Shown piece by piece: positions 1,526 through 27,086 of a stretch of 64,000 bases of DNA. The stretch's first letter is position 1, and every line of letters begins with the position of its first letter. The notes below the pieces were generated by a model. It saw only the letters and a program-made list of their open reading frames with translations, made no database searches and was not told the DNA's origin. Made by a program: the position numbers and the translations under genes. The stretch covers positions 32,001-96,000 of the IMG/VR virus record IMGVR_UViG_2654587976_000001; one strand, given 5' to 3'. Origin of the DNA: a virus. Lineage: Duplodnaviria; Caudoviricetes.

Positions 1526-3007
1526 TTAGTTTGAAAACTTTTCGAACAACCCGCCATAAACCAGTTGTGTATCATCATTTTCTTTATTAAAAGGTATTTT
1601 CACAGTTGTATCTTTTTCTTTTTTCGAAGATGAAAAATTTGCTTTCTTTTTTCCTAAAAGAGTGAAGAGTTTCTCTTCAATCTGTTGAATAGATAAACCT
1701 TCAGAAATCGCTTTAACTGAATTGATATCATCTTCAGATAGTTCAAGATTGAACTTTTCATAAAGCTCTTTTTCTTTTTCCTTACGTTGTGAAGAAAGAG
1801 TGTCAGCTTTAAATTGTTTGAGCGCCTCATTTTCTTCTTTAACCGACGCGTAAGTATGTTCAACCTCTTTTTCCTTTGCTTCAAGTTCATCTTTTAGTTT
1901 TTCAACAGGCACCACAGAAAATTTTGATTCATTGCCTTCGATAAAATCTACAATTTCAAACTTCTTTCGGTGTTTTGTTGAAAAATCAATTGTCACCTTG
2001 TCTTCTGAAATGGAGAATTTGAAGCCATACAGTAATCCGTCTTCTTTGTTATCAAATGCAAAAACTTCATCGTCTTTTTGATCTGCGTAGTAATAGCGAA
2101 TTCGCTCTTCAGATTCACCCCAACTATAAGTTTTCACAAACTTTTCTTCACTAAGGGCACGTTTTAATTCAGCTTCTAACTGATTAGCTGACAAGGAAAA
2201 GCTGCTGTCAACTTTGTATGCTGTTTTGAGTTTTTGATTTAACTCTTCATATGAAAGGGCTTCATAATTGATTCCGTTTGCGGCTAACTCTTCTTTAGTA
2301 ACAGAGAATTGTTTTAAAAGTTCTGTTTTATCCAAAGTCTTTATACCTCCTTTATCAGTGTTGATGGATTTAAACAGTTCCATTTTTTCTTGAATACCTT
2401 TGAACATTTTGTCTTCTGAGAATTGAGTTTCGATAGTTGCAGACTGCATAGCAGGGAGGACATCAGTTCCTAATGCACAAGCACCAAAAAAGCTAAATTT
2501 AGTGAAATGGAACACTTCATCAATCCATTCCCCTTCAAAATCATCATGGAGTTCCATGGACTGTGACTTCACGCTGTTTCTGTTGAATATTTCGATTGGA
2601 TCGTCCCATTTTTGCCATACAAGTCCTTCGCAAGTAAGGAATTCTCTTTCTATTCCGTCATCACAAACTCGTTTTTCAAACTTTGCATTGTTCGACTCAG
2701 GAATGAGCCCGATAGCTTGTCCGATATACTTAACTTTAAAGTGACCATCCTCTTTAATTAAAACCATGCGGTGGTCTGAAAAATCAATATCCCCATCAGA
2801 GTTCTCTTCTATGTAGGATAAAATAGGAGTATTAGCAAGAGAGGGGATAGCGGCTTGAACTGCTTCTTTATTAAAATAGCTTCCATTTAGGTTTTCCCCT
2901 AAATGCATCAGCCAAATTTTCACCTTTAAGAATCGAGTGTCTTCTGTTTCAAATGAATCCAAGCTCTGAAAGAGAAGAGGCACATAATTATCTACCGTTT
3001 TGTCCAA
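1526..3007 (-). CDS. yonD: Putative prohead protease/scaffold protein (YonD-like)
   Basis: TTG at 3007 behind AAAGGAGGTG. N-terminal protease-like domain (HLGENLNGS, SQSMEL, GACALG...PAM), charged coiled-coil C-terminus. Confidence 0.65.
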   Translation of the reverse strand: MDKTVDNYVPLLFQSLDSFETEDTRFLKVKIWLMHLGENLNGSYFNKEAVQAAIPSLANTPILSYIEENSDGDIDFSDHRMVLIKEDGHFKVKYIGQAIGLIPESNNAKFEKRVCDDGIEREFLTCEGLVWQKWDDPIEIFNRNSVKSQSMELHDDFEGEWIDEVFHFTKFSFFGACALGTDVLPAMQSATIETQFSEDKMFKGIQEKMELFKSINTDKGGIKTLDKTELLKQFSVTKEELAANGINYEALSYEELNQKLKTAYKVDSSFSLSANQLEAELKRALSEEKFVKTYSWGESEERIRYYYADQKDDEVFAFDNKEDGLLYGFKFSISEDKVTIDFSTKHRKKFEIVDFIEGNESKFSVVPVEKLKDELEAKEKEVEHTYASVKEENEALKQFKADTLSSQRKEKEKELYEKFNLELSEDDINSVKAISEGLSIQQIEEKLFTLLGKKKANFSSSKKEKDTTVKIPFNKENDDTQLVYGGLFEKFSN

Positions 3008-3036
3008 ATTTTCACCTCCTTTCAAAAATCATTTGA

Positions 3037-4479
3037 TTACTCTCGATTAAGGTTTCCTTCATTTTCCCTCGTTTCAACACCTTTATCGGAAAGAGCATCT
3101 TCTTTTTTCTTTGGGGCGCCAGCGGATTTAACGCTTTGTGTGTGAGAGCTGGACAAAGGTATTAAATTATCTGGCAAGTTCATAATTTCATTCTCAAGAA
3201 ATGCCATGTTGTTTAAATTGCTCTGTGTAACCCCCAATGTAGAAGCTAATGCAGACTTAACAGGCATTCCATATTGAGCTGCTTGTAACAAACTGTCTCG
3301 TACAGTTTCTACATTCAATTTTGTAGTTTCTAATAGCTCAATTCTGAATTTATATTCACTATCCATTTTTTTGAGCTTCCTATTTAGCCATCGTTCCAAT
3401 TGTTTTAACACTCTAAAAGCGACTTGTTCATCTGTGATTATCGATTTAGATAGGCCTGTTCCACTCATTCCATCACTGTTGAATAATATTTGACTGACTC
3501 CGGCCGCATTATAATAATCTCTTTCAGCTTTTGCGACAGCATCTGCATCATTGCTTTTTCTTTCAAGCTTAATTGCTTCAATTTGCATAGGAGAGGTTAC
3601 TAGACCAACTTCTTCTGGCAGAGCATTCATTGCCATATTGTGAAAATCAATGGCTGTTTCCATGTTCAATAAAAGCTTGTCTGCTTCTCCAGATTTCTCA
3701 TCCATGGGGATTTTTTGTGTTAGGATCATATAATTGTCCATCTTGTTTTTTACATTGCGAAGTCTTTTGGTTTCATCTATATCAAGAACTGATTCAAAAA
3801 CTGAAGAGAAAGGGGGAAGTAGATATTCAAGTTCCTCATTTACCTTGATACATATAGTGTTTTCGGAGCTCAGTTCTTGCCACCTTAAGCCTGTTTTGTC
3901 TTTGGTGTATTTCAGATACTTAACCCTAAATTCTTTAGGATAATCCTTTAAGATGTCCTTATTAGAATCAAAATAAGCAAAGTCAAAACTGTAGTTGAAA
4001 ACTCCATCTTCAATGGAACTTATCCTACAATAATCTGGGTCAAGTTTTTGAATGAAATACGAATCAGATGTTGTATGCTCATATCCATAAAAGACGTCTT
4101 CTTTAAAGGCAATTAGCAATAGTTTTGTGAATTCGTGCTGAAGATTCATTGTTTCAATAAGTTTTAATATGCTGGAATATTGATCTTTAAAGGGTTTTTC
4201 TTTGAATTTGTCTATATTTAAATCGAAAGGTTTGATTATGTAATCAAAGCGGAGCATAGTTGCAAAATATTGAATCAGGCGTTTATAGTTAGGCGAGGTG
4301 TTATATAAAAAACGGCTAACTCTTCTCAATTCTTTTTGGCTTTTTTGAGGGTTTTGAAGGTACATAATGATATTTTCTTTAGTGAATTTTGAGGAAATAG
4401 CTGATTTGTTATTATTTAAGCTCATGTCGTTGAGAAGTAGCTTGGACAGCTGCGCAAAACTTATTAATTTTTGATCCAT
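3037..4479 (-). CDS. yonE: Putative portal protein (YonE-like)
   Basis: 480 aa ORF directly downstream of the terminase large subunit, SPbeta synteny. Confidence 0.7.
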   Translation of the reverse strand: MDQKLISFAQLSKLLLNDMSLNNNKSAISSKFTKENIIMYLQNPQKSQKELRRVSRFLYNTSPNYKRLIQYFATMLRFDYIIKPFDLNIDKFKEKPFKDQYSSILKLIETMNLQHEFTKLLLIAFKEDVFYGYEHTTSDSYFIQKLDPDYCRISSIEDGVFNYSFDFAYFDSNKDILKDYPKEFRVKYLKYTKDKTGLRWQELSSENTICIKVNEELEYLLPPFSSVFESVLDIDETKRLRNVKNKMDNYMILTQKIPMDEKSGEADKLLLNMETAIDFHNMAMNALPEEVGLVTSPMQIEAIKLERKSNDADAVAKAERDYYNAAGVSQILFNSDGMSGTGLSKSIITDEQVAFRVLKQLERWLNRKLKKMDSEYKFRIELLETTKLNVETVRDSLLQAAQYGMPVKSALASTLGVTQSNLNNMAFLENEIMNLPDNLIPLSSSHTQSVKSAGAPKKKEDALSDKGVETRENEGNLNRE

Positions 4480-4505
4480 TTGTTACAAATTTCAACTCCT
4501 TTCTT

Positions 4506-6320
4506 TTAAGAAATTTGCGGTTGTTTAAACAGGAACATTTTATTCATATCAATTTTGGGATGCTCTTTTTTTGTTATGTTTTCACGTCTTAGTTGCTTTA
4601 AGTACCAAGCAAGCATTGCAATTGTATATGCACGGTCGTCGTGAACTTTACTTTTCTTATCAGGAGGCAAGTCATACCTTACTTTGCTACTACTCCCAGA
4701 AGAAAATTTATAGATGCTGACAAGCTCTTCTTTTGCTAAATCAATATTTGTTAAAGACAAAATTTCTTCATCGGTTAGCTTGTACTTTTTTCCTTCACCG
4801 TTATCAGTAGGTAAAGTGATTTCTCCCTTATAATCATAGGTTTCAGTAAAAGATATTAAGTTTAAATCCATCATCTCAATTAAAGATTCAAACATGTCGC
4901 TTTTTAGTTTTTGAGGTGAGAGGAGGGAGAGTTTGTCACTGGCGTTTGGATACTTGGAAATGTAAGATTTGTACTCTTCGTGTTGTTTATCAATAAGACC
5001 CCTGTGTTTAACACCCTTAGTATCTGTCCAGTCCTCCAGTAAACCATCTGCCCAGGCATTCATACCGCCACCGCCAGCACCGGCATCTAAGAGAATTCTT
5101 TCGATATTTTCATAATCAGCTGCCTTTGTTCCATTGTAATTTAGAAGCATCCTTTTAAAATCCTTAACTTGATCAGGAGTCTTAATTGGGGTTTTCTTTT
5201 TCTTTTCTAGATCAGTCCAAGAAACATTATTAGAAATTTCAAGCCGGTAGCCTACATTCTCATCATTAATTAGCTCTGCAACTGTGCATACTGAGTTGTC
5301 ATGATTTCTTGCAGGGTCGATGGCCATTAAAAATTTTCTGGAGCCATCATTAGCAAGAACAGGGGGGCGCGTTACAGAATTTCTGATAATCATTGCACGT
5401 TTGATGATTTGATTGTCTGATCCCTCGGTGGTGAATATGTTCTTATATTCACGCATAGCTTTTTCTTTGTTATCTCTCATTGCTGCATCCACAGTTTCTT
5501 GGGATAGCAAAGACACAGGGTACAGTTTTCCATTAAAGGTGGCATTTATAACAATGTCTGAACTGATATCTGCGACAAAATATCTTTTGTCTCCTAAGAA
5601 CATCTTTTTAGCAAAATCGCTATATTTTCGATAGAAGTAGGTATCTGTTGAAGAGGCTGACGAGGCATAAATCAGTTGGTTGGGCATTTGTTTAGGAAAT
5701 AGAGTGACATCAACATCTCCACCTAGTCTAAAATCACTGTTCTGAACAGCAAACGGTTCAGAAGTCGTAAAAAGCTCATCAGGAGCAAAACCACTTTCAT
5801 CATAGAAATTTAGATTAGAACGCTTCGAGCGGTTGTTGTCAAAGGATCCGTTTAATGAATTTACAATACTTCCGTTATAAAGTTTGTATTGAAATGATGC
5901 GGGGTTGTGGGTGAAGCCATCAGTGTTTGCTGCACTCTTAACGGTTTCGTTATAAAAAATGTCTGTAAGGCCGGTAAAGGACGCAATCTCTCTTTTCGCT
6001 ATTTTTTCAATTTTTAAGAACATCTCTTGCGATTGTGAACCAACACCAGCCAAGATATACGCTTGGAAATTGGGGATCAGGAGACTTTTGGCCATAATAA
6101 AAGGGCTTCCCAGTGTTGTTTTTCCTGAGTTTCGCCCCATGCACCAAAGAACATATTGCTTGTACCAACTTTCAGTAAAAGCGTACTTTTGATAATCTAA
6201 AAGTTCCATGCCGAAGAATCTTTCTACAAATTTGACCGGGTTTTTTCGCCCCCACTGAATGACTTCGGCAAGCTTAATAAATCCATCTATTTTCCGTTGA
6301 GACATATTAGCTTTAGTCAT
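4506..6320 (-). CDS. yonF: Terminase large subunit (YonF-like)
   Basis: Walker A GRNSGKTT, Walker B NFYDE, C-terminal nuclease motifs AIDPAR and HDDRAY. Confidence 0.85.
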   Translation of the reverse strand: MTKANMSQRKIDGFIKLAEVIQWGRKNPVKFVERFFGMELLDYQKYAFTESWYKQYVLWCMGRNSGKTTLGSPFIMAKSLLIPNFQAYILAGVGSQSQEMFLKIEKIAKREIASFTGLTDIFYNETVKSAANTDGFTHNPASFQYKLYNGSIVNSLNGSFDNNRSKRSNLNFYDESGFAPDELFTTSEPFAVQNSDFRLGGDVDVTLFPKQMPNQLIYASSASSTDTYFYRKYSDFAKKMFLGDKRYFVADISSDIVINATFNGKLYPVSLLSQETVDAAMRDNKEKAMREYKNIFTTEGSDNQIIKRAMIIRNSVTRPPVLANDGSRKFLMAIDPARNHDNSVCTVAELINDENVGYRLEISNNVSWTDLEKKKKTPIKTPDQVKDFKRMLLNYNGTKAADYENIERILLDAGAGGGGMNAWADGLLEDWTDTKGVKHRGLIDKQHEEYKSYISKYPNASDKLSLLSPQKLKSDMFESLIEMMDLNLISFTETYDYKGEITLPTDNGEGKKYKLTDEEILSLTNIDLAKEELVSIYKFSSGSSSKVRYDLPPDKKSKVHDDRAYTIAMLAWYLKQLRRENITKKEHPKIDMNKMFLFKQPQIS

Positions 6321-10251: not shown

Positions 10252-10514
10252 ATTAAATTCCTCCAATATGTGTTTTATTTACGTTCAATAAGCTCCTTCG
10301 GAAGCCCGATGATCCGAAGCATCGGTAACGACCGAAAAGGGGATATAAAGGAGATGAAAAGATAAGTCGGATAGACGTTGGGGAAACGCCCGAAGGAGAT
10401 TATTGATTACTTGCGTACCGAAAGGCTCGTAAGCACATTCCGGCTGATCGGTAAAGTGAAACGCAAGCACAAAAAGACCTCGCCATAGGATGCGGAAGCC
10501 TCGTTCTGATTGCG

Positions 10515-10745
10515 TTATTTGTGGTTTACTAATTTAAATCCAGGTTCCAGTACGAGCTTACCGTACATGTCGAGAGATCCGACAAATACTTTGCGACCTT
10601 TCCGATCCTTTCCAAAATATTCTTCAGTGGGTTCGTTAAGGATAGCATCGATAATCTCGCCGGCATAAGTTTCATTAATAATCTCGCCCCATTTATTATA
10701 TACCGTGTCATCATACATAACTTTAACGCGAATATTTGTGTCCAT
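10515..10745 (-). CDS. Hypothetical protein
   Basis: 76 aa ORF with GGGAGG RBS inside an otherwise non-coding region. Confidence 0.6.
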   Translation of the reverse strand: MDTNIRVKVMYDDTVYNKWGEIINETYAGEIIDAILNEPTEEYFGKDRKGRKVFVGSLDMYGKLVLEPGFKLVNHK

Positions 10746-10749
10746 CTTT

Positions 10750-12165
10750 TTCGTCCTCCCTTGAAAATTATACGAAATTAGCGTTTCCTTACATATTATT
10801 CATTAACCCAAGTAGGTACGCAAAATCGACAGGGAATACGCTGATTACGAATTCATCGATCGAAATCTTTGTAAGTCGAAAATAACAAAAGACGCCAAAT
10901 AACGTCTTCAGAAACTCCTTGTACATCAAGGTACATGAGCATAAAAGGCTGGTTATCGCTGTGCGAAATCCAGCTGGCTCCTTCTACACCTGGCAGATGA
11001 GCTATGACAACAAATAATACACGCTTTCCGGAACGTATTTAAAGTCCCCACCGGCGGAGAATTCACGGTTGTCTCGTGAACTGCTTAGTATCGCTCTGTC
11101 AAGCATCACCTTAAAAGAGCTTGCACGTTAGCTGTTTATAGATATTAAAAATATAAGAAGGAAAGACCCATTATAAGCCTTCTCAATGGCATTTTCAGTC
11201 TCTCTTGTCAGGTTACACGCCTTATTGAGAAACAAAGCGTCTCAAACGCTCGCCATTTATTTTGCACAGTTTTCTCTGACCCGTGTAAGGAGGTATGTGC
11301 ATGGGAAAGATAAGTCTCCATACAGAACATTGAAGGAGATGAAGTGAAATAAAGTGAACGTGTTGCTAAGTGAAATTGAAAAGGCAAGACCGAAAATAAT
11401 CCTTTTCTGTGAAATGGGAGCGGTGATCAAGCGCCCAAAAACCATTTCACTTATTTTACGAGGGTATGTAATTACAAAGCCTCGCTAACCCGGAAAAATT
11501 TTTGATTACCTCTAATAAGCAACAAAGCTTACAAGGGCATTATTTAAAGGTAAGGGAGACGCATCTGCCTTACCTAAGTGCAGCCGAAGCAGTACACCGA
11601 ATTAATATTCAGGTTATATGCCACCCATAATAAGACCCTGATGGGATTCAGTCGCAATTTGCATTAATGCGTTAAGTCTTATCTGCATATTTAGCCCGAT
11701 AATAGCCATTTACCTGTCTCTTTTAGATACAGACATCCGAGTTAACCTCGAACCCTCATAAGTGACCATTATCCGACTAACTACAATGACCAGTTGTAGC
11801 TGTAAAGTCGAATTTAATGCTTTTGTTCGTATGAAAGTGAGAATAGAAATGTTTAGAAAAAGCTTAACCCACGGTGGGGCAATACCCCGCTAATATCCAC
11901 TTATCCGAAACCCTGGCATTCCAAGTCCTCAAACAAATGAATATTAGCCGAGAACTGATATCCCACATATCAGTAAACAGCTTATTATTGACGACACCCC
12001 CATGCCATCAATAAAAGAACTCTAATTAATTAACCTGGAGCTGAACACATGCGGAAAGAGGAGAGGGCGACAATTTCCTCCATAACATCTAACTCTGCCA
12101 CTTTTAGGAGCATAAGCTCTATGTGACAAAGCGTGCAGGAAGCCTTTCCTGTCGTCCTCATTAAT
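10750..12165. ncRNA. Long hairpin-rich non-coding region, candidate structured RNA(s) or late leader
   Basis: No credible ORF over ~1.4 kb and many inverted repeats, e.g. GTGAAATGG..CCATTTCAC, AGGTAAGG..CCTTACCT, CTACAA..TTGTAG, ACTGATAT..ATATCAGT. Confidence 0.4.
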
Positions 12166-12170
12166 TTTTA

Positions 12171-12446
12171 TTAAGCTTTAACTGCGTCTTTTAGAGCTTT
12201 AGCAGCCTTGAATGCTGGTGCCTTTGTAGCTGGAATATCAATTTCCTCACCCGATTTTGGATTTCTCCCTTTACGAGCTGCACGTTCACGAACCTCAAAT
12301 GTTCCAACTCCAGGAATCTTGATTGATTCACCTTTTGTAAGTGTTTCAACGATTACATTAAATACTGCTTCTACTTTAGGCGTAGCTTCTTTCTTAGTAA
12401 CTCCTAATTTTTCTGCAACTTCTCCAACAAATTCTGTTTTGTTCAT
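12171..12446 (-). CDS. yonN: HU family DNA-binding protein (YonN)
   Basis: MNKTEFV...GTFEVRERAARKGRNPKSGEEIDIPA...PAFK, the classic HU signature. Confidence 0.95.
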   Translation of the reverse strand: MNKTEFVGEVAEKLGVTKKEATPKVEAVFNVIVETLTKGESIKIPGVGTFEVRERAARKGRNPKSGEEIDIPATKAPAFKAAKALKDAVKA

Positions 12447-12706: not shown

Positions 12707-13354
12707 TTACACCTTTTGATTTCTAAATCGGATGACTCGTTCCTTTGTTTTTTGTTTATTCCTCTTGACTGTACATTTCCCACAGAAAAGCTTCTTACTT
12801 GTTTTAGCCCTAAATAGCGTTTTACAATCACTACAAACTCTTAGTGTTTTCAGGTTGTGTGTTAGGTTGTTCAATATACAAGCACCGAAACATTCCCACA
12901 AAGTCGATTTGAATTTACTCTTCTTTTTATACAGATACTTAATCAGAACATCAGCAACATATTGCTCGTCTTCATGAATCTTCAGCAATCTGTCTTTAAT
13001 GACCTTATAAACATAAAGTTTTTGTCCAGGCTTAATGTCTTCATCATTCATGAGCCATTTCTTGTTTTGGTCTAATCGTTTGTACTCACTAATAATTGCC
13101 TCGTCCAACTTAATATCCTTGTTCTTGAGCAGGAAGCGATAATCGAACTTCCCTGCAACAGCTGCAAAATTAATTCGGTCTGAGGGGATAATGGAGTCTA
13201 ACTTATTTACTGTGCTTTCATTAATTAACTCAACGCTATGTTCTTCTTTATCCTTTGCATTGATGAAGAAGTGGGGTACTTTATTTTTTATGTAATCTTT
13301 GATTTTTTCATCGACATGATCAGGTCGGGTAGGCATGAATAAGGTTTTTGCGAA
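12707..13354 (-). CDS. yonO: YonO single-subunit RNA polymerase, exon 2
   Basis: Frame [14 protein letters not shown]... begins immediately after the intron's terminal G and joins exon 1 in frame. Confidence 0.85.
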
Positions 13355-13685
13355 CTTTGATACCCTCGGTTTCCCGATATTTTATTAGGGAATAGACCAT
13401 ATCATCATCTGTGCTAGACAGATGGTCAGCGCTTCATAATAAGGAATTTCACCTTATTATTACTCCATAAAGGATGGTCGTTGCACCTTCATTTACAAGT
13501 GCTTCCCAGCATGATGTAAACGCTTGGCACAGGGTTATCGTATCGATAAGGACTTAGAATTCCCCTGTTAGCACACTCATTGACGATCATTTCCTATCGC
13601 TGCTTTTCGCTGAATGCACACCCTAGATTTCTAGGTTCACTGACTTTTCATCCGCATATCGCTATGCGACGCGACTAAAAATTTA
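13355..13685 (-). ncRNA. ORF-less group I intron (331 nt) in yonO
   Basis: 5' exon ends in U (...AUCGAU) and pairs with internal guide GUCG via a U-G wobble. P7 is GACCAU/AUGGUC (GCAACGACCAU and GAUGAUAUGGUCU). The intron ends in G, and removing it restores the frame. Confidence 0.88.
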
Positions 13686-15560
13686 ATCGATAGTAAAGTT
13701 ATTTTCCATACATAACCATTTGATCACGTCCATATTTATGTTGTCACTGTTCCATATCTTAGTGATGTTGTTGCTGTACTCCCCGATATTGATCCCATAA
13801 GCAAGAGTTAGTGCTTCATAGATGTTTTTGCTATTAATCTCTTGTTTCTGGGCTACAGACATTTCATAATACAACGGAACGATGTTTTCCATATTACGCT
13901 TGGCAATATTGACGATTAACTCATCAGGAATAATTAAGGCCTTATCCCCGTCATTGTCGAACTGCAGCAGTTTAGATATTGGATCATGAATGCTGGTGTA
14001 AACACCTGGGGTAATGAACCACTTTTCATATTCCTCATCTTTTTTGTTCCACCTAACACCATGCTCTCTGAATAGGTGAGGGGAGCGGAGGATATCAATA
14101 TACCCTTCATCATATAAAGAACAATGGACATCACTTCCTGAAAGCAGTCCTTTTGGATTCTGGATGTTCAGAAATAATTTTTCGCAGAAAGCATACAGGT
14201 CAGGGCATAAGTATGTATAACGAGCACCATCAACAAGCAATTTTCCTGATTTGGCATCTTTAATCATGCTTTTCTTTTTATTTTTAATAATTTCTTTCGT
14301 GTGATCATCGTTAAGAAGTTCTGGATATAGAAGCAAAGCGTTCTGAAGAGCTGTTCGATGTTTCTTTTTCTCCGTAGCTCCAAGAACTCTTAACATGGTT
14401 TCTTTGTCAGTTCCCAATGTGGTAATCTCTTTTACAGTCTTAGAGCTCATTTGAATTAATTCTTCATCGGAGATATCTGTAAGTGTCTGGAGCATTTGAT
14501 AAGTGAGTTTACCTTCAATAGAAGGGTCTTCTTCGTTGAGTTTTGCCCCTAAGCATCCATATTTTTTATAATTGCCTTGATATTCTTCCCACGATGAATA
14601 ATACTTCCACATTTTAAACTGGCTTTTAGTGAAGATAATTTGAACATCATCTTTCACTACGTCCCATTCCTTGCCGTATATATCAGTTACTTTAAAAGCT
14701 TTGTTTTCCTCAGCAAATTTACGAAAATCAAAAGGGACTAATAAACCCTTTACCCATGGGAGTCTTACCATGAAGCTTTTACGACTTAGAGTGGGGAGTA
14801 TCATTCCGCAGCCATCTGTATGTTCAATGGGAATGTTCATTGTTTTTCGTGTGATATCGTAGGTATCTCGATCAATGTAGTCAACGAGACTCGACACATC
14901 AGTTTCTAAGTCGTTGACAACAATGGCTTTATCAATATCAATCTCCCAAGGGCTACTGGCACTGTTAGAAAGGGCCATATAGCTATTCCATTTGTTAATG
15001 CTACTACCACCAAGGGAGTTGATCTTTTCAATACTTAAGCCGCATGTCAAAGCATCCTGATACTTATCGTAGGTGCTTTTTTTAATGAAACATGACTTCT
15101 TTGTACGAATTTGACCGGCGCTGCTCGTGAAATAAATGTATTTTTCATTGTTATGTAAAAATCCCTGATCAATAATGTCCTTCAATACTTCAAAATGGTA
15201 AGTCTGGACAACCATGATTTCCTCTGAAAGGGTGTTTTCTTTAATCCCTAATGTTCGGGTCAACACTGAATCAAATAAAGAAATCACTTTATTATCCCTT
15301 AAGCTGTCAGTTCGAAGTGTTCTTATGTTATTATGTTCTTCGAATGCGGAATAGAGGCATTCTTTAAGGTATGTAATTCTTTGTGATATGTATTTCTTAT
15401 GTTTATTATTTACATTGTCTAATGTCTTAAGATAATCTCTGTATCTATAAGACTTCAAAATCTTATTATGTAATGAATTTTCTTTGTCATTATAAAATGC
15501 TGATGTGTCCACGCTGTATATGTGAACTTGCTTAGACAATCCGTCTTTTTTTCTTTTCAA
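13686..15560 (-). CDS. yonO: YonO single-subunit DNA-dependent RNA polymerase, exon 1 (spliced product ~840 aa)
   Basis: Catalytic QFDNDGD (DxDGD) and RSPH motifs, SPbeta synteny yonP-yonO-yonN. Confidence 0.9.
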
Positions 15561-16313: not shown

Positions 16314-16598
16314 ATGGATACTTATTTTGCTTCTGTCATTGACAACTTAACTCGAAATGATCTGTATATTCTAGGCTTATTGAGCGATGAAGGGGCTGAT
16401 TTAAAGTTTAAATCAATTAGGAAGAAAACCATTCAAGCTAAAACTCAGTTAACTGATGCTACCTTTAGAAAGAGTATCGATCGTCTGGAGGCCTTGCAAT
16501 TTATTAATATAGTGAAAAACAGTAAAGAGCATACAATTTTTATTACTCAATATGGTCAAGAAGCTTTGAGATATCAATTAGAAGGGGAGAGGGTTTAA
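16314..16598 (+). CDS. Winged-helix DNA-binding protein, TubR-like adaptor
   Basis: ATG at 16314 behind AAGGAGGGG, wHTH-like FRKSIDRLEALQFI...ITQYG, translationally coupled (TAATG) to the tubulin gene. Confidence 0.6.
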   Translation: MDTYFASVIDNLTRNDLYILGLLSDEGADLKFKSIRKKTIQAKTQLTDATFRKSIDRLEALQFINIVKNSKEHTIFITQYGQEALRYQLEGERV

Positions 16599-17710
16599 TG
16601 TTTGGTTTTATTGGAGTTGGTCAGGCCGGCGGAAGTGTAGCAGATGAAGCAATGAAGAGAGGATTTCATTCTGTCGCAATAAATTATTCACTTTCAGACC
16701 TTAATTCATTGGTCAATATTCAAGATAAGCTTCATCTGGTTGGGACAGAAGGAGTTGGCAAAGAAAGAAGTGTAGCAGCGAAACATATGAAAAACAACTG
16801 GGAATCTTCTATTGAGTTTATAAAGAACACAATGGAAAAGCCTTCAGTACAAGTCATTTTTGTTGTTTTCTCTGCAGCTGGTGGAACTGGTTCAGGGGTA
16901 GCTCCTATATTATTAGAATTGTTAAACGAATGTCTTACTCATAAAACAATAGTTGCTGTACCCATCCTTCCTGACAACAATGAAGTATTGGTCAATCAGA
17001 TGAATTCACTGGAGTTGCTTGATGACTTATCTATGCCAGAGACATGTGTTTTACCTTTGGATAATCAAATGGTTTTGAGCAAATATGAAGGGAAGATTTC
17101 TGAAAGCAGACTATACAAGGAGACAAACAAGATGTTCCTTGATTTAATCGAAGTCTTACTCAATTACACGGACAGAGGATCAAAGATCAGTACATTAGAC
17201 AGGAAGGATTTAAATCAGCTTTTTGACACATCAGGAATCATGACTATTGCTCAAACAGACCTCAATGAATTTACAAATGAGGGTAAGTATTTTGATAAGC
17301 TGCATGAAGATATACAAAAGTCGTGGAACAATTCGATTTTCACTCCTGTTGAGTTTACAAATGTGATGAGAGCTGGAGTTATTCTGGATGTTCATGAGTT
17401 CTTAACGGAACATATATCGTATAATGAGCTGTTTAATGTCTTTGATAACAAGATGCCCCTAGACTTATTTAAAGGGCATTATGATAAAGGTAATAGGGCG
17501 ATAACGATTCTTAGTGGATTAACCTGGATCAATGAGCGAATGAAGCAGTTAGATGATTTAATTGAAAATGGGAACACTGAAGTTAAAGAAACAACTGTTT
17601 ATAAAGCGAAGAATCGCCGTAGAGAGGATTTATTTAAACCGAAAAAACTGGAGAACAAGGAATCGAAAAAGACCTCTTATATGGAGGCACTGAAGAGACT
17701 AAAGCGCTAA
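16598..17710 (+). CDS. Tubulin/FtsZ-family GTPase (TubZ-like)
   Basis: GVGQAGG, AGGTGSG tubulin signature, DN motif, T7-like loop LDRKD, basic C-terminal tail. Confidence 0.85.
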   Translation: MFGFIGVGQAGGSVADEAMKRGFHSVAINYSLSDLNSLVNIQDKLHLVGTEGVGKERSVAAKHMKNNWESSIEFIKNTMEKPSVQVIFVVFSAAGGTGSGVAPILLELLNECLTHKTIVAVPILPDNNEVLVNQMNSLELLDDLSMPETCVLPLDNQMVLSKYEGKISESRLYKETNKMFLDLIEVLLNYTDRGSKISTLDRKDLNQLFDTSGIMTIAQTDLNEFTNEGKYFDKLHEDIQKSWNNSIFTPVEFTNVMRAGVILDVHEFLTEHISYNELFNVFDNKMPLDLFKGHYDKGNRAITILSGLTWINERMKQLDDLIENGNTEVKETTVYKAKNRRREDLFKPKKLENKESKKTSYMEALKRLKR

Positions 17711-25498: not shown

Positions 25499-25713
25499 AT
25501 CATTCCGAGAGAGTCGTTATGAATGTTGAAAAAAACGAGAACGGATTTGTAGTTGTAAAAGAGCATTATACAGAAGAGGGTATCCGCGAAAACCAATGCT
25601 TTTGTTTTGATAGAGATAAGGCTAGTGCAGAGGCTGAACGTATTCAAAATGAAATTGATCCAGAACATAACGAATGGAAAGTGACTTATGAACCTGTAGA
25701 GATTATTAGATAG
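25495..25713 (+). CDS. Hypothetical protein
   Basis: Track ORF 25486..25713, ATG at 25495 behind AAGGAG. Confidence 0.55.
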   Translation: MNHSERVVMNVEKNENGFVVVKEHYTEEGIRENQCFCFDRDKASAEAERIQNEIDPEHNEWKVTYEPVEIIR

Positions 25714-25809
25714 TCGTTTGGGTGACTATAAACAGACATTAAGCCCAGAGCGTCCTTCCTGCTGCGGGAAAAGAAAACAACTCATAAAACATAAGGAAGT
25801 GTTATTCAG

Positions 25810-26065: not shown

Positions 26066-26305
26066 TTGAGTTATGAACGTCCAGGCTTTACTTTTGCGGA
26101 AGCAGTAGTATTGTCCCTGAAGATCATGTTAACGATTGCTATTGTAATTGGTGATGCATTCTTTATACGTTGGCTTTACACAAATGATTACGTTATTTCG
26201 ACTTATGTGACTGGTGGATTTTCATTTTTTGTTTTTTGGTTTTTATGTTTTGGACTCCCGAATGAGAGATTAAATGTCGCCTGGGCGACTATAAACAGAC
26301 ATTAA
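26066..26305 (+). CDS. Small membrane protein
   Basis: Two hydrophobic segments, GGGGG RBS. Confidence 0.55.
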   Translation: MSYERPGFTFAEAVVLSLKIMLTIAIVIGDAFFIRWLYTNDYVISTYVTGGFSFFVFWFLCFGLPNERLNVAWATINRH

Positions 26306-26339
26306 GCCCAGAGCGTCCTTCCTGCTACGGGAAGGGGTT

Positions 26340-27086
26340 GTGAAAAATATAAGGAGAGAATGGGGGCGTTTTAAAAAAATGGCAGCAGTACTAAAAATGA
26401 AAGAATCTGATTTGTTCGAACCTGTTAAGTCGTTTCTAATAAAAAATGGTTGCTCGAAAGTTTATGGGGAAGTTCTCGGATGTGATGTATTTGGGATAAA
26501 TGGAGTGTGTGATATTGTCGTAGAATTGAAGACAACGTTGAGTTTTAAACTGATTGATCAAGCTTTAGACAGATTGAACCATGGTCATTACGTTTACATT
26601 GCAGTACCTAAGAGAAAAGGGCATATACCTAGATGTGTGAAATACCTACTTGAAGAAAAAAATATAGGTTTACTTGAAGTAGGTAAAGACAAATATTCAG
26701 ACGACATTATAGTACATGTTTCAATTCCTGCAAAATACAATCGCCTTGCTACTGAATGGAAGAAGAGAGGATTAAAGTCAACCAGAGACTATATAAAGGA
26801 CTACCACGAAACACAAATGGGGGGTGTAAAGGGGGGAGAGAGTGTTACTGAGTATTCTAACATGATTGATAATATTAAAGATTTCTTGTACCGCAGAATG
26901 CGTGGAAAATGGGCTACAATTGAAGAAATATTGAACCATTGTGAAACGTATTATTCAAATCCAAAACCAAGTCTAAACGCAACTTTGCAAGCGAAATGGA
27001 ATAGTGATTGGTGTGAATCTAAAGTGGTTAATCGAAAAAGATATTTCAGAATTCGAAAGGAACAATATTATGGGGAAGGGATCTAA
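26340..27086 (+). CDS. Putative PD-(D/E)XK nuclease-fold protein (DUF2161-like)
   Basis: ESDLFEPVK...GEV..CDV...VELK...QA...YIAVP pattern. Confidence 0.55.
   Translation: MKNIRREWGRFKKMAAVLKMKESDLFEPVKSFLIKNGCSKVYGEVLGCDVFGINGVCDIVVELKTTLSFKLIDQALDRLNHGHYVYIAVPKRKGHIPRCVKYLLEEKNIGLLEVGKDKYSDDIIVHVSIPAKYNRLATEWKKRGLKSTRDYIKDYHETQMGGVKGGESVTEYSNMIDNIKDFLYRRMRGKWATIEEILNHCETYYSNPKPSLNATLQAKWNSDWCESKVVNRKRYFRIRKEQYYGEGI

Follow-up and report, generated by a model that had tools for sequence, protein, structure and literature searches.

The stretch analysed here (the window) comprises 64,000 nucleotides, bases 32001-96000 of a 128,870-base SPbeta-like provirus record. The yonO gene, which is uninterrupted in SPbeta, is split in its orthologue in the window, and the three parts lie on the minus strand as follows.

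13686..15560, minus strand: yonO exon 1, 625 codons, with the RdRP-like two-barrel polymerase core including FDNDGDK, ending in ...ENNFTID

13355..13685, minus strand: ORF-less intron of 331 nt, assigned to group I by RF00028 (38.3 bits), the SPbeta junction, an RNA contig and covariation

12707..13354, minus strand: yonO exon 2, 215 codons plus stop, starting with FAKTLFMPT and colinear with SPbeta YonO after ...FTID

The exon 1 product matches the Pfam family RdRP (PF05183) with 32.1 bits at a cut-off of 23.8, its translation contains the aspartate motif of two-barrel polymerases, FDNDGDK, and its DNA is about 81% identical to SPbeta yonO. A search for PDB relatives returned none for either exon product, and the C-terminal 215 residues of YonO are kept in all homologues that were scored. 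The host gene is thereby classified as the orthologue of SPbeta YonO with a predicted activity of the single-subunit RNA polymerase type. In the text available of Forrest et al. 2017 (PMC5467207), YonO of SPbeta-type phages is described as transcribing the late genes. The neighbourhood is conserved as well: an HU-like gene occupies 12171-12446 and a small ORF lies upstream, like yonN and yonP in SPbeta.

Several other features of the window deserve mention. A 370-aa ORF on the plus strand (16598-17710) shows tubulin/FtsZ-like glycine-rich motifs in its translation (GVGQAGG, AAGGTGSG). The roughly 1.9 kb downstream of the HU-like gene (10270-12170) hold no ORF longer than 76 aa and are 82-92% identical to SPbeta-like phages; in the corresponding part of the Goe14 record, RNA motifs named 'skipping-rope' and 'DUF3800-VIII' are annotated, and the Rfam scans of the window list nothing there. 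Two pistol ribozyme matches (RF02679, cut-off 34.5) were found on the plus strand at 26275-26342 (66.0 bits) and 25712-25766 (41.3 bits), the second of which misses most of one stem. On the minus strand, 18813-18910 matches the Bacillus SR6 antitoxin RNA (RF02892) with 86.2 bits; in SPbeta this RNA is known as the antitoxin of a type I toxin-antitoxin pair.

The boundaries of the insertion were read from the alignment with the intronless SPbeta gene, which covers 15693-13685 and 13354-12616, both pieces ending at one SPbeta base with one T at the junction that fits either side. The exact ends were then fixed by the group I rule of a U before the 5' splice site and a G as last intron base. Exon 1 thus ends with U13686, TAA at 13685-13683 forms the first three intron bases, and the intron 3' end ...CAAAG runs out in G13355, directly before exon 2. 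These ends agree with the original prediction, in which exon 1 stops at ...ENNFTID on a U, the intron opens with an apparent TAA stop and a terminal G precedes FAKTLFMPT. On the minus strand, the ORF list gives 13683..15560 as a 625-aa frame that reads ...ENNFTID and then TAA, while the exon 2 frame is open in translation from 13354 to its stop at 12707. The joined frames amount to 840 codons, compared with 839 in SPbeta yonO and with the product of about 840 aa that had been anticipated, and the SPbeta protein runs uninterrupted across the join (NNFTID followed by FAKTLF). As the intron opens with an in-frame TAA, full-length YonO needs splicing, and unspliced RNA yields the 625-residue N-terminal part only. 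Late transcription in intron-bearing phages is hence predicted from the sequence to depend on splicing. Within the intron, no ORF of at least 40 aa is present on either strand.

An alternative reading would be that the two frames are translated separately and that the spacer is dead or a non-catalytic remnant. GenBank does annotate two CDSs at this place in related phages (phi3T_60/phi3T_59, yonO_1/yonO_2), and an ATG (MPTRPD...) occurs seven codons into exon 2. A division at this point would, however, sever the conserved motif NNF-ID followed by (F/Y)AKT, and a split gene is difficult to reconcile with the RNA data. Parts of the stretch occur in twenty public runs, of which ten are recorded as RNA, and four were compared (X1, X8, X9 and X4). 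In the RNA-seq run X1, a contig of 59 nt lies with 0 differences on 13714-13685 and then on 13353-13325 ('skips 331'), leaving 29-30 letters on each side of the joint with one base fitting either side. The exons are therefore joined precisely at the junction ...ATCGAT to TTCGCA... that had been proposed for the spliced product. After the join the contig reads TTC, where TTT stands in every one of the 23 close intronless alleles surveyed. An intronless DNA allele of the surveyed kind is thereby excluded as its source, and the contig is best read as spliced RNA of the window's allele. The joint was found in this one of the four runs; X8, which belongs to that study, leaves the junction uncovered, and X9 (RNA, different study) and X4 (probably DNA) hold the intron-containing form only. 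Word depths in X1 were 90 for the junction contig, 125 and 143 for the exon contigs and 184 for a 390-letter intron-bearing contig, where such contigs show neither strand nor absence and the depths cannot measure splicing efficiency.

The assignment to group I starts from a match to the Rfam model Intron_gpI (RF00028) at 13695-13373 that spans positions 1-253 of the model; in a 1-kb search it scores 38.3 bits with E = 5e-8, and in the provirus scan 37.3 bits. A scan with group I models, which had been proposed as a check, thus supports the element by E-value on 1 kb, but the score stays below the 50-bit Rfam gathering cut-off, as would suit a dead spacer. The intron is listed by the 1-kb scan and missing from both the gathering scan and the whole-window E-value scan. 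Likewise, a 24-kb multi-locus Rfam E-value scan missed the introns of phi3T, Goe11, Perkons, CB457P1, EFP01 and PH15. These relatives were recovered by blastn, which found the same intron in SPbeta-like phages and matched, over part of its length, intervening sequences of further phage genes, namely in Psychrobacillus phage Perkons, Enterocloster phage CB457P1, Enterococcus phage EFP01 and Staphylococcus phage PH15. The EFP01 match sits between two nrdD pieces, and the one of PH15 inside a joined terminase (terL) CDS next to an annotated homing endonuclease.

Ten introns from yonO, nrdD, terL and unnamed genes were aligned with MAFFT, and a structure written from the window's sequence was counted on this alignment. 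Its elements are the following.

13672..13689, minus strand: P1, in which exon CGAU and intron UAA (13689-13683) pair with the guide UUAGUCG (13678-13672)

13653..13668, minus strand: P2 hairpin, CGCAUA/UAUGCG with a GCGA tetraloop, 100% paired, 4 of 6 pairs compensatory

13638..13644, minus strand: P3 5' strand, GUCAGUG, pairing with CGCUGAC at 13431-13425, 100% paired, 4 of 7 pairs compensatory

13573..13635, minus strand: extra domain, with Px 13635-13622, Py 13617-13611 with 13579-13573 (7 bp) and Pz 13600-13583

13529..13568, minus strand: P4 with a minimal P5; P4 is ACAGGG 13568-13563 with CCCUGU 13534-13529, the P5 hairpin 13549-13535

13485..13528, minus strand: P6, P6a and P6b, 92-97% paired (P6 96.7%), P6b with a GNRA-type loop GGGA

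13436..13479, minus strand: P7 5' strand (GACCAU, 13479-13474), P7.1 (13473-13465) and P7.2 (13460-13436)

13395..13431, minus strand: P3 3' strand (13431-13425), P8 (13424-13406), J8/7 (AUGAU) and P7 3' strand (AUGGUC, 13400-13395)

13355..13390, minus strand: P9, P9a and 3' tail, CCC...UCGG GAAA CCGA GGG, tail UAUCAAAG and terminal G13355

For the 17 helices with 93 pairs in 10 introns, 90.7% of 860 cells were standard-paired, compared with 76.2% in shuffles, of which 0 of 500 reached the observed value, and with 36-44% for slid partners, over which a structure derived from one alignment row, that of the window, is favoured. MAFFT partly misaligned EFP01 and PH15, which lowers the pairing counts and does not raise them. 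Compensatory changes on both sides occur in 57 of the 93 pairs and in each of P3, P4, P6, P7 and P8, which include the P3/P7 pseudoknot core. Ribozyme helices that stay paired through such changes argue against a spacer without function. Folding supports the structure as well: the minimum-free-energy fold has -98.2 kcal/mol with z = -4.68 against 100 shuffles, and when unconstrained it recovers P3, Px, Py, Pz, P4, P6a/b, P7.2 and P8.

Both helices named in the original prediction are borne out. P1, given there as CGAU with GUCG, is paired with changes on both sides in 4 of its 7 pairs, and U13686 stands opposite a G as the wobble at the 5' splice site, a splice-site U-G that is seen in 8 of 10 rows. 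P7, predicted as GACCAU/AUGGUC, is 95% paired with compensatory changes in 3 of 6 pairs, the relatives having GACUAU/AUAGUC or GGUCAU/AUGACC. The four variable bases of P3 read by eye GUCA/UGAC, CCUU/AAGG or GAUG/CAUC. P4 is 96.7% and P8 89.9% paired, and P5 reaches 52% as a helix that is not alignable between the intron forms. The terminal base is a G in 9 of 10 aligned rows, the Perkons row having an undefined 3' end, and by eye the P10 pairing with the 3' exon is weak (1 bp). About 50 nt at the end of the core, around 13395..13431, are 86-92% identical to many records of Listeria, Staphylococcus and Enterococcus phages.

Subgroup IA is defined by two additional helices, P7.1 and P7.2, that follow P7 and precede the 3' strand of P3. 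In the window intron these two helices are 100% and 88.8% paired, and the Rfam alignment also places an insert after P7, so that the element is assigned to the IA type on its predicted structure. The P1-P9 core, the J8/7-P7 consensus and the P7.1/P7.2 pair ahead of the 3' strand of P3 are features that it has in common with phage IA introns such as those of T4 td and Staphylococcus phage Twort. It differs from the Rfam consensus in a covarying domain of Px and Py-Pz, about 70 nt between the P3 5' strand (GUCAGUG) and J3/4-P4 (UAA-CAGGGG). Px, a hairpin of CCUAG AAAU CUAGG, appears as CCUAU/AUAGG and CCUGU/ACAGG in the metagenomic contigs L057 and L061 and pairs in 100% of cells with 2 of 5 pairs compensatory; the corresponding values are 7 of 7 for Py and 3 of 5 for Pz, which is capped by the invariant loop AGGAAAUG. 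The domain is common to the introns of the window, Perkons, CB457P1 and EFP01 (nrdD), with a shorter version in PH15 (terL). It is without counterpart in the Rfam consensus, the region being aligned at low posterior, and we infer that this two-hairpin insert is the likely reason for the low RF00028 score. A literature search did not find a published name for it.

Two alternative placements were dropped on the way to this structure. Rfam sets P4/P5 at CCUAG...CUAGGG, but covariation assigns the CCUAG stretch to a hairpin of its own, and ACAGGG is paired with CCCUGU in every row. Other P3 5' strands (UCAGCG, GUCAAUG and GUGC before UAA) were discarded by eye, given an A-C mismatch in EFP01 and the covariation of N4-GUG/YGC-N4.

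The intron is polymorphic among SPbeta-like elements. In a collection of 24 phage records covering at least 80% of yonO, with the state scored by the length of the matched place, eight are intronless (two of SPBc2, Goe12, Goe13, SPbetaL1, L2, L8 and one phi3T-SPbeta hybrid), nine hold about 400 nt without an ORF (two of phi3T, phi3Ts, SPR, SPbetaL3 and four hybrids) and seven about 1290 nt with a GIY-YIG ORF (vB_BsuS-Goe11, Goe14, SPbetaL4-L7 and BUCT083); boundaries were checked directly in SPBc2, phi3T, Goe11 and BUCT083. A survey of yonO alleles for presence or absence, as had been suggested, gave the same picture in IMG/VR: among 77 scorable alleles from 79 examined out of 229 relatives, 60 have no insert and 17 have one, of 1154-1296 bases in 12 and of 330-400 bases in 5. 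Alleles that share 93% or more of the last 120 exon 1 residues divide into 23 without and 15 with the intron, and the window's own clade contains all three states (none in L013 and L014, 1291 bases in L015 and L016, 331 in L012). Contigs from one genome per species (80) gave 71 without insert, 4 with insert (331, 331, 1275 and 495 bases) and 5 that were not scorable. Copies of the 331-nt form, identical or almost so, occur in L012 (100% identical), L019, L091 and L170.

Homologous introns interrupt the same codon in more distant relatives, with 495 bases in a Neobacillus sequence (L098) and with 1154 and 1270 bases in L057 and L061, whose YonO homologues, like that of L098, are just 56-66% identical to the window's protein. 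Conservation of the target NNF-x-ID followed by (F/Y)AKT extends to homologues with as little as 53% protein identity. In phi3T, SPR, SPbetaL3, Goe11, Goe14, SPbetaL4-L7 and BUCT083, the intron occupies the window's site after ...ACTATCGAT with TTC as the first exon 2 codon. A few side observations arose from this survey. At 13352, the third base of exon 2 codon 1, SPbeta-like intron-bearing alleles read TTC and the 23 close intronless ones TTT in a tally without the rows L019, L057 and L061; TTC may have travelled with the intron as a marker, or it may alter recognition by the endonuclease. In L098, the exon 1 match spans about 2.7 kb (2501-5196) for 618 residues and is split by tblastn, so that a further insert may lie upstream of the shared site. 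L091 and L170 have an identical 331-nt form in a near-identical yonO, and their assemblies are labelled Streptomyces sp. and Paenibacillus sp., sources in which an SPbeta-like prophage is unexpected, so that the contigs may be foreign to these assemblies.

This distribution bears on the functional part of the original prediction, a timing or GTP checkpoint. Splicing would then be rate-limiting or GTP-sensing and would time late transcription, and the ORF-less intron would be kept for the benefit of the phage. The requirement of full-length YonO for splicing past the in-frame UAA (13685-13683) fits such a role, as do the abundance of intron-containing RNA contigs (depth 184 in X1, sole form in X9) and the recurrence of the 331-nt form with little or no change in L012, L019, L091 and L170. 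Yet the intron is absent from the 60 of 77 IMG/VR alleles and from 23 of the 38 close ones, and SPbeta, Goe12 and Goe13 are intronless and were nevertheless isolated as phages. The sister copies moreover carry a homing endonuclease gene of the GIY-YIG type, and this accounts for the intron's persistence even if the phage gains nothing from it. We therefore consider a checkpoint very unlikely.

How the endonuclease gene is placed becomes apparent from comparing the intron forms. The 131 bases at the 5' end and the 188 bases at the 3' end are common to all three at 97-99% identity, and the differences are confined to the P5 loop, which holds an 80-nt stem in phi3T, a 903-nt GIY-YIG ORF in Goe11 and a minimal hairpin in the window. 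The 903 bases of the Goe11 ORF are equipped with their own GGGGG ribosome-binding site and a GTG start, and in Pfam the product scores 30.8 bits with GIY-YIG and 24.5 bits with NUMOD3, beside a weak helix-turn-helix match; ORFs in the introns of L057, L061 and PH15 align with it. In phi3T the AU-rich P5 stem is kept and the ORF is gone between two short AAACAAGG-type repeats. The window's P5 contains a 17-base hairpin, CCUUAUCGAUACGAUAA, that is absent from phi3T, Goe11 and L015. With 69 nt less than in phi3T and 959 nt less than in Goe11, the window intron is the smallest form. The original prediction was also correct in finding no homing endonuclease inside, and a search with the Goe11 GIY-YIG protein did not find a homologue of it anywhere in the 128,870-base provirus.

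Between the window and phi3T or Goe11, the ribozyme is 97-98% identical, whereas exon 1 reaches about 81% and exon 2 about 72%. A ribozyme more conserved than its exons fits lateral spread between diverged alleles and is not what separately translated genes around a dead spacer would lead one to expect. phi3T and SPR, moreover, carry the intron and were isolated as phages, and overall we regard a split gene without splicing as extremely improbable. Flank identity does not discriminate as to co-conversion tracts, the flanks being 91-97% identical to both phi3T (with intron) and SPbeta (intronless). From the sequence comparison we infer the direction of change as loss rather than gain of the ORF: the endonuclease gene would have been lost and P5 trimmed afterwards, which corresponds to the decay phase of a homing element.

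Loss of the endonuclease ORF and of the long P5 stem, in a record that represents a provirus, might alternatively reflect a decaying intron in a defective prophage, in which splicing is inefficient and yonO is becoming a pseudogene. Against this, both exons are intact and the core helices complementary, and the X1 junction contig has about two thirds of the depth of the exon contigs. L012 furthermore has the 331-nt form at 100% identity, and L091 and L170 carry it too. Decay of the splicing function itself hence appears most improbable. The endonuclease-bearing sisters, taken together with the patchy presence, instead identify what is in all likelihood a selfish mobile intron in decay and not a regulator.

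We thus conclude, with high confidence, that 13685..13355 on the minus strand is a functional ORF-less IA group I intron in yonO, selfish in nature and the smallest derivative of a mobile 1290-nt intron. The ORF-less group I intron predicted for these coordinates is upheld by SPbeta colinearity, covariation and the RNA contig alike, and direct support comes from the boundaries, the covarying structure, the polymorphism, the endonuclease-bearing sisters and the ligated-exon RNA in one run. In the proposed course of events, translation of the primary transcript would be halted at codon 625 by the intron's UAA. The ribozyme would fold into P1-P9 with P7.1/P7.2 and the two-hairpin domain between P3 and P4, and, on the standard group I pathway, free guanosine would attack after U13686. 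The exon 3'-OH would then attack after G13355 and join ...AUCGAU to UUCGCA..., giving the 840-codon YonO; autocatalysis in vitro with a guanosine cofactor would be expected of such an element. The 1290-nt GIY-YIG/NUMOD3 intron would spread among yonO alleles by homing into the site NNF-ID followed by (F/Y)AKT. A bolder combination, which we consider very unlikely, would have the splicing efficiency of the minimal intron, perhaps linked to guanosine nucleotide supply, govern the build-up of active YonO and thereby time the late switch, while the P3-P4 domain may mark an undescribed IA subclass in yonO, nrdD and terL.

Group I introns are not new to these phages, as SPbeta bnrdE and bnrdF are described to contain them (Lazarevic et al. 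1998 and Lazarevic 2001, as cited in PMC8270828). The yonO intron resembles these in being a group I intron in a gene of an SPbeta-family phage; it differs from the nrdF-type introns in its host gene and in the endonuclease family, which is GIY-YIG instead of HNH. The provirus itself contains a second group I intron outside the window at about 113,700-114,500 (L007, 1014-1779; RF00028 at 39.5 and 30.6 bits), which has an HNH ORF and splits nrdF, the ribonucleotide reductase small-subunit gene; blastn gave no alignment between the yonO intron and this locus. The original prediction knew of no intron in yonO, which holds for the open-access literature, where we found no paper describing one, but not for the sequences, given that 16 of the 24 public SPbeta-like phage records hold it. 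The word 'intron' does not occur in the available text of Forrest et al. 2017 (PMC5467207), and the accessible portions of PMC8270828, bioRxiv 10.1101/2021.11.22.469490, PMC5467207, PMC7824862 and PMC2504315 do not mention a yonO intron. The records of phi3T, SPR, SPbetaL3, Goe11, Goe14, SPbetaL4-L7 and BUCT083 have no intron annotation, with Goe11 listing yonO_1, a hypothetical gene and yonO_2.

The window intron belongs to a well-known class of phage group I introns and is an ordinary selfish phage intron, which leaves the existing picture of group I introns and of YonO function unaltered. Its consequences are mainly for annotation. Existing annotation lists yonO as a pair of 'hypothetical' genes in phi3T, SPR, the SPbetaL phages and Goe11/Goe14; phi3T being a model phage, its late RNA polymerase ought to be entered as a single gene with splicing. 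As the yonO intron family scores below the Rfam cut-off, routine scans miss its members. With intronless, endonuclease-bearing, 400-nt and 331-nt forms in one gene of closely related, cultivable Bacillus phages, the series of yonO forms offers a convenient system for the homing cycle and for intron-driven competition between co-infecting phages.
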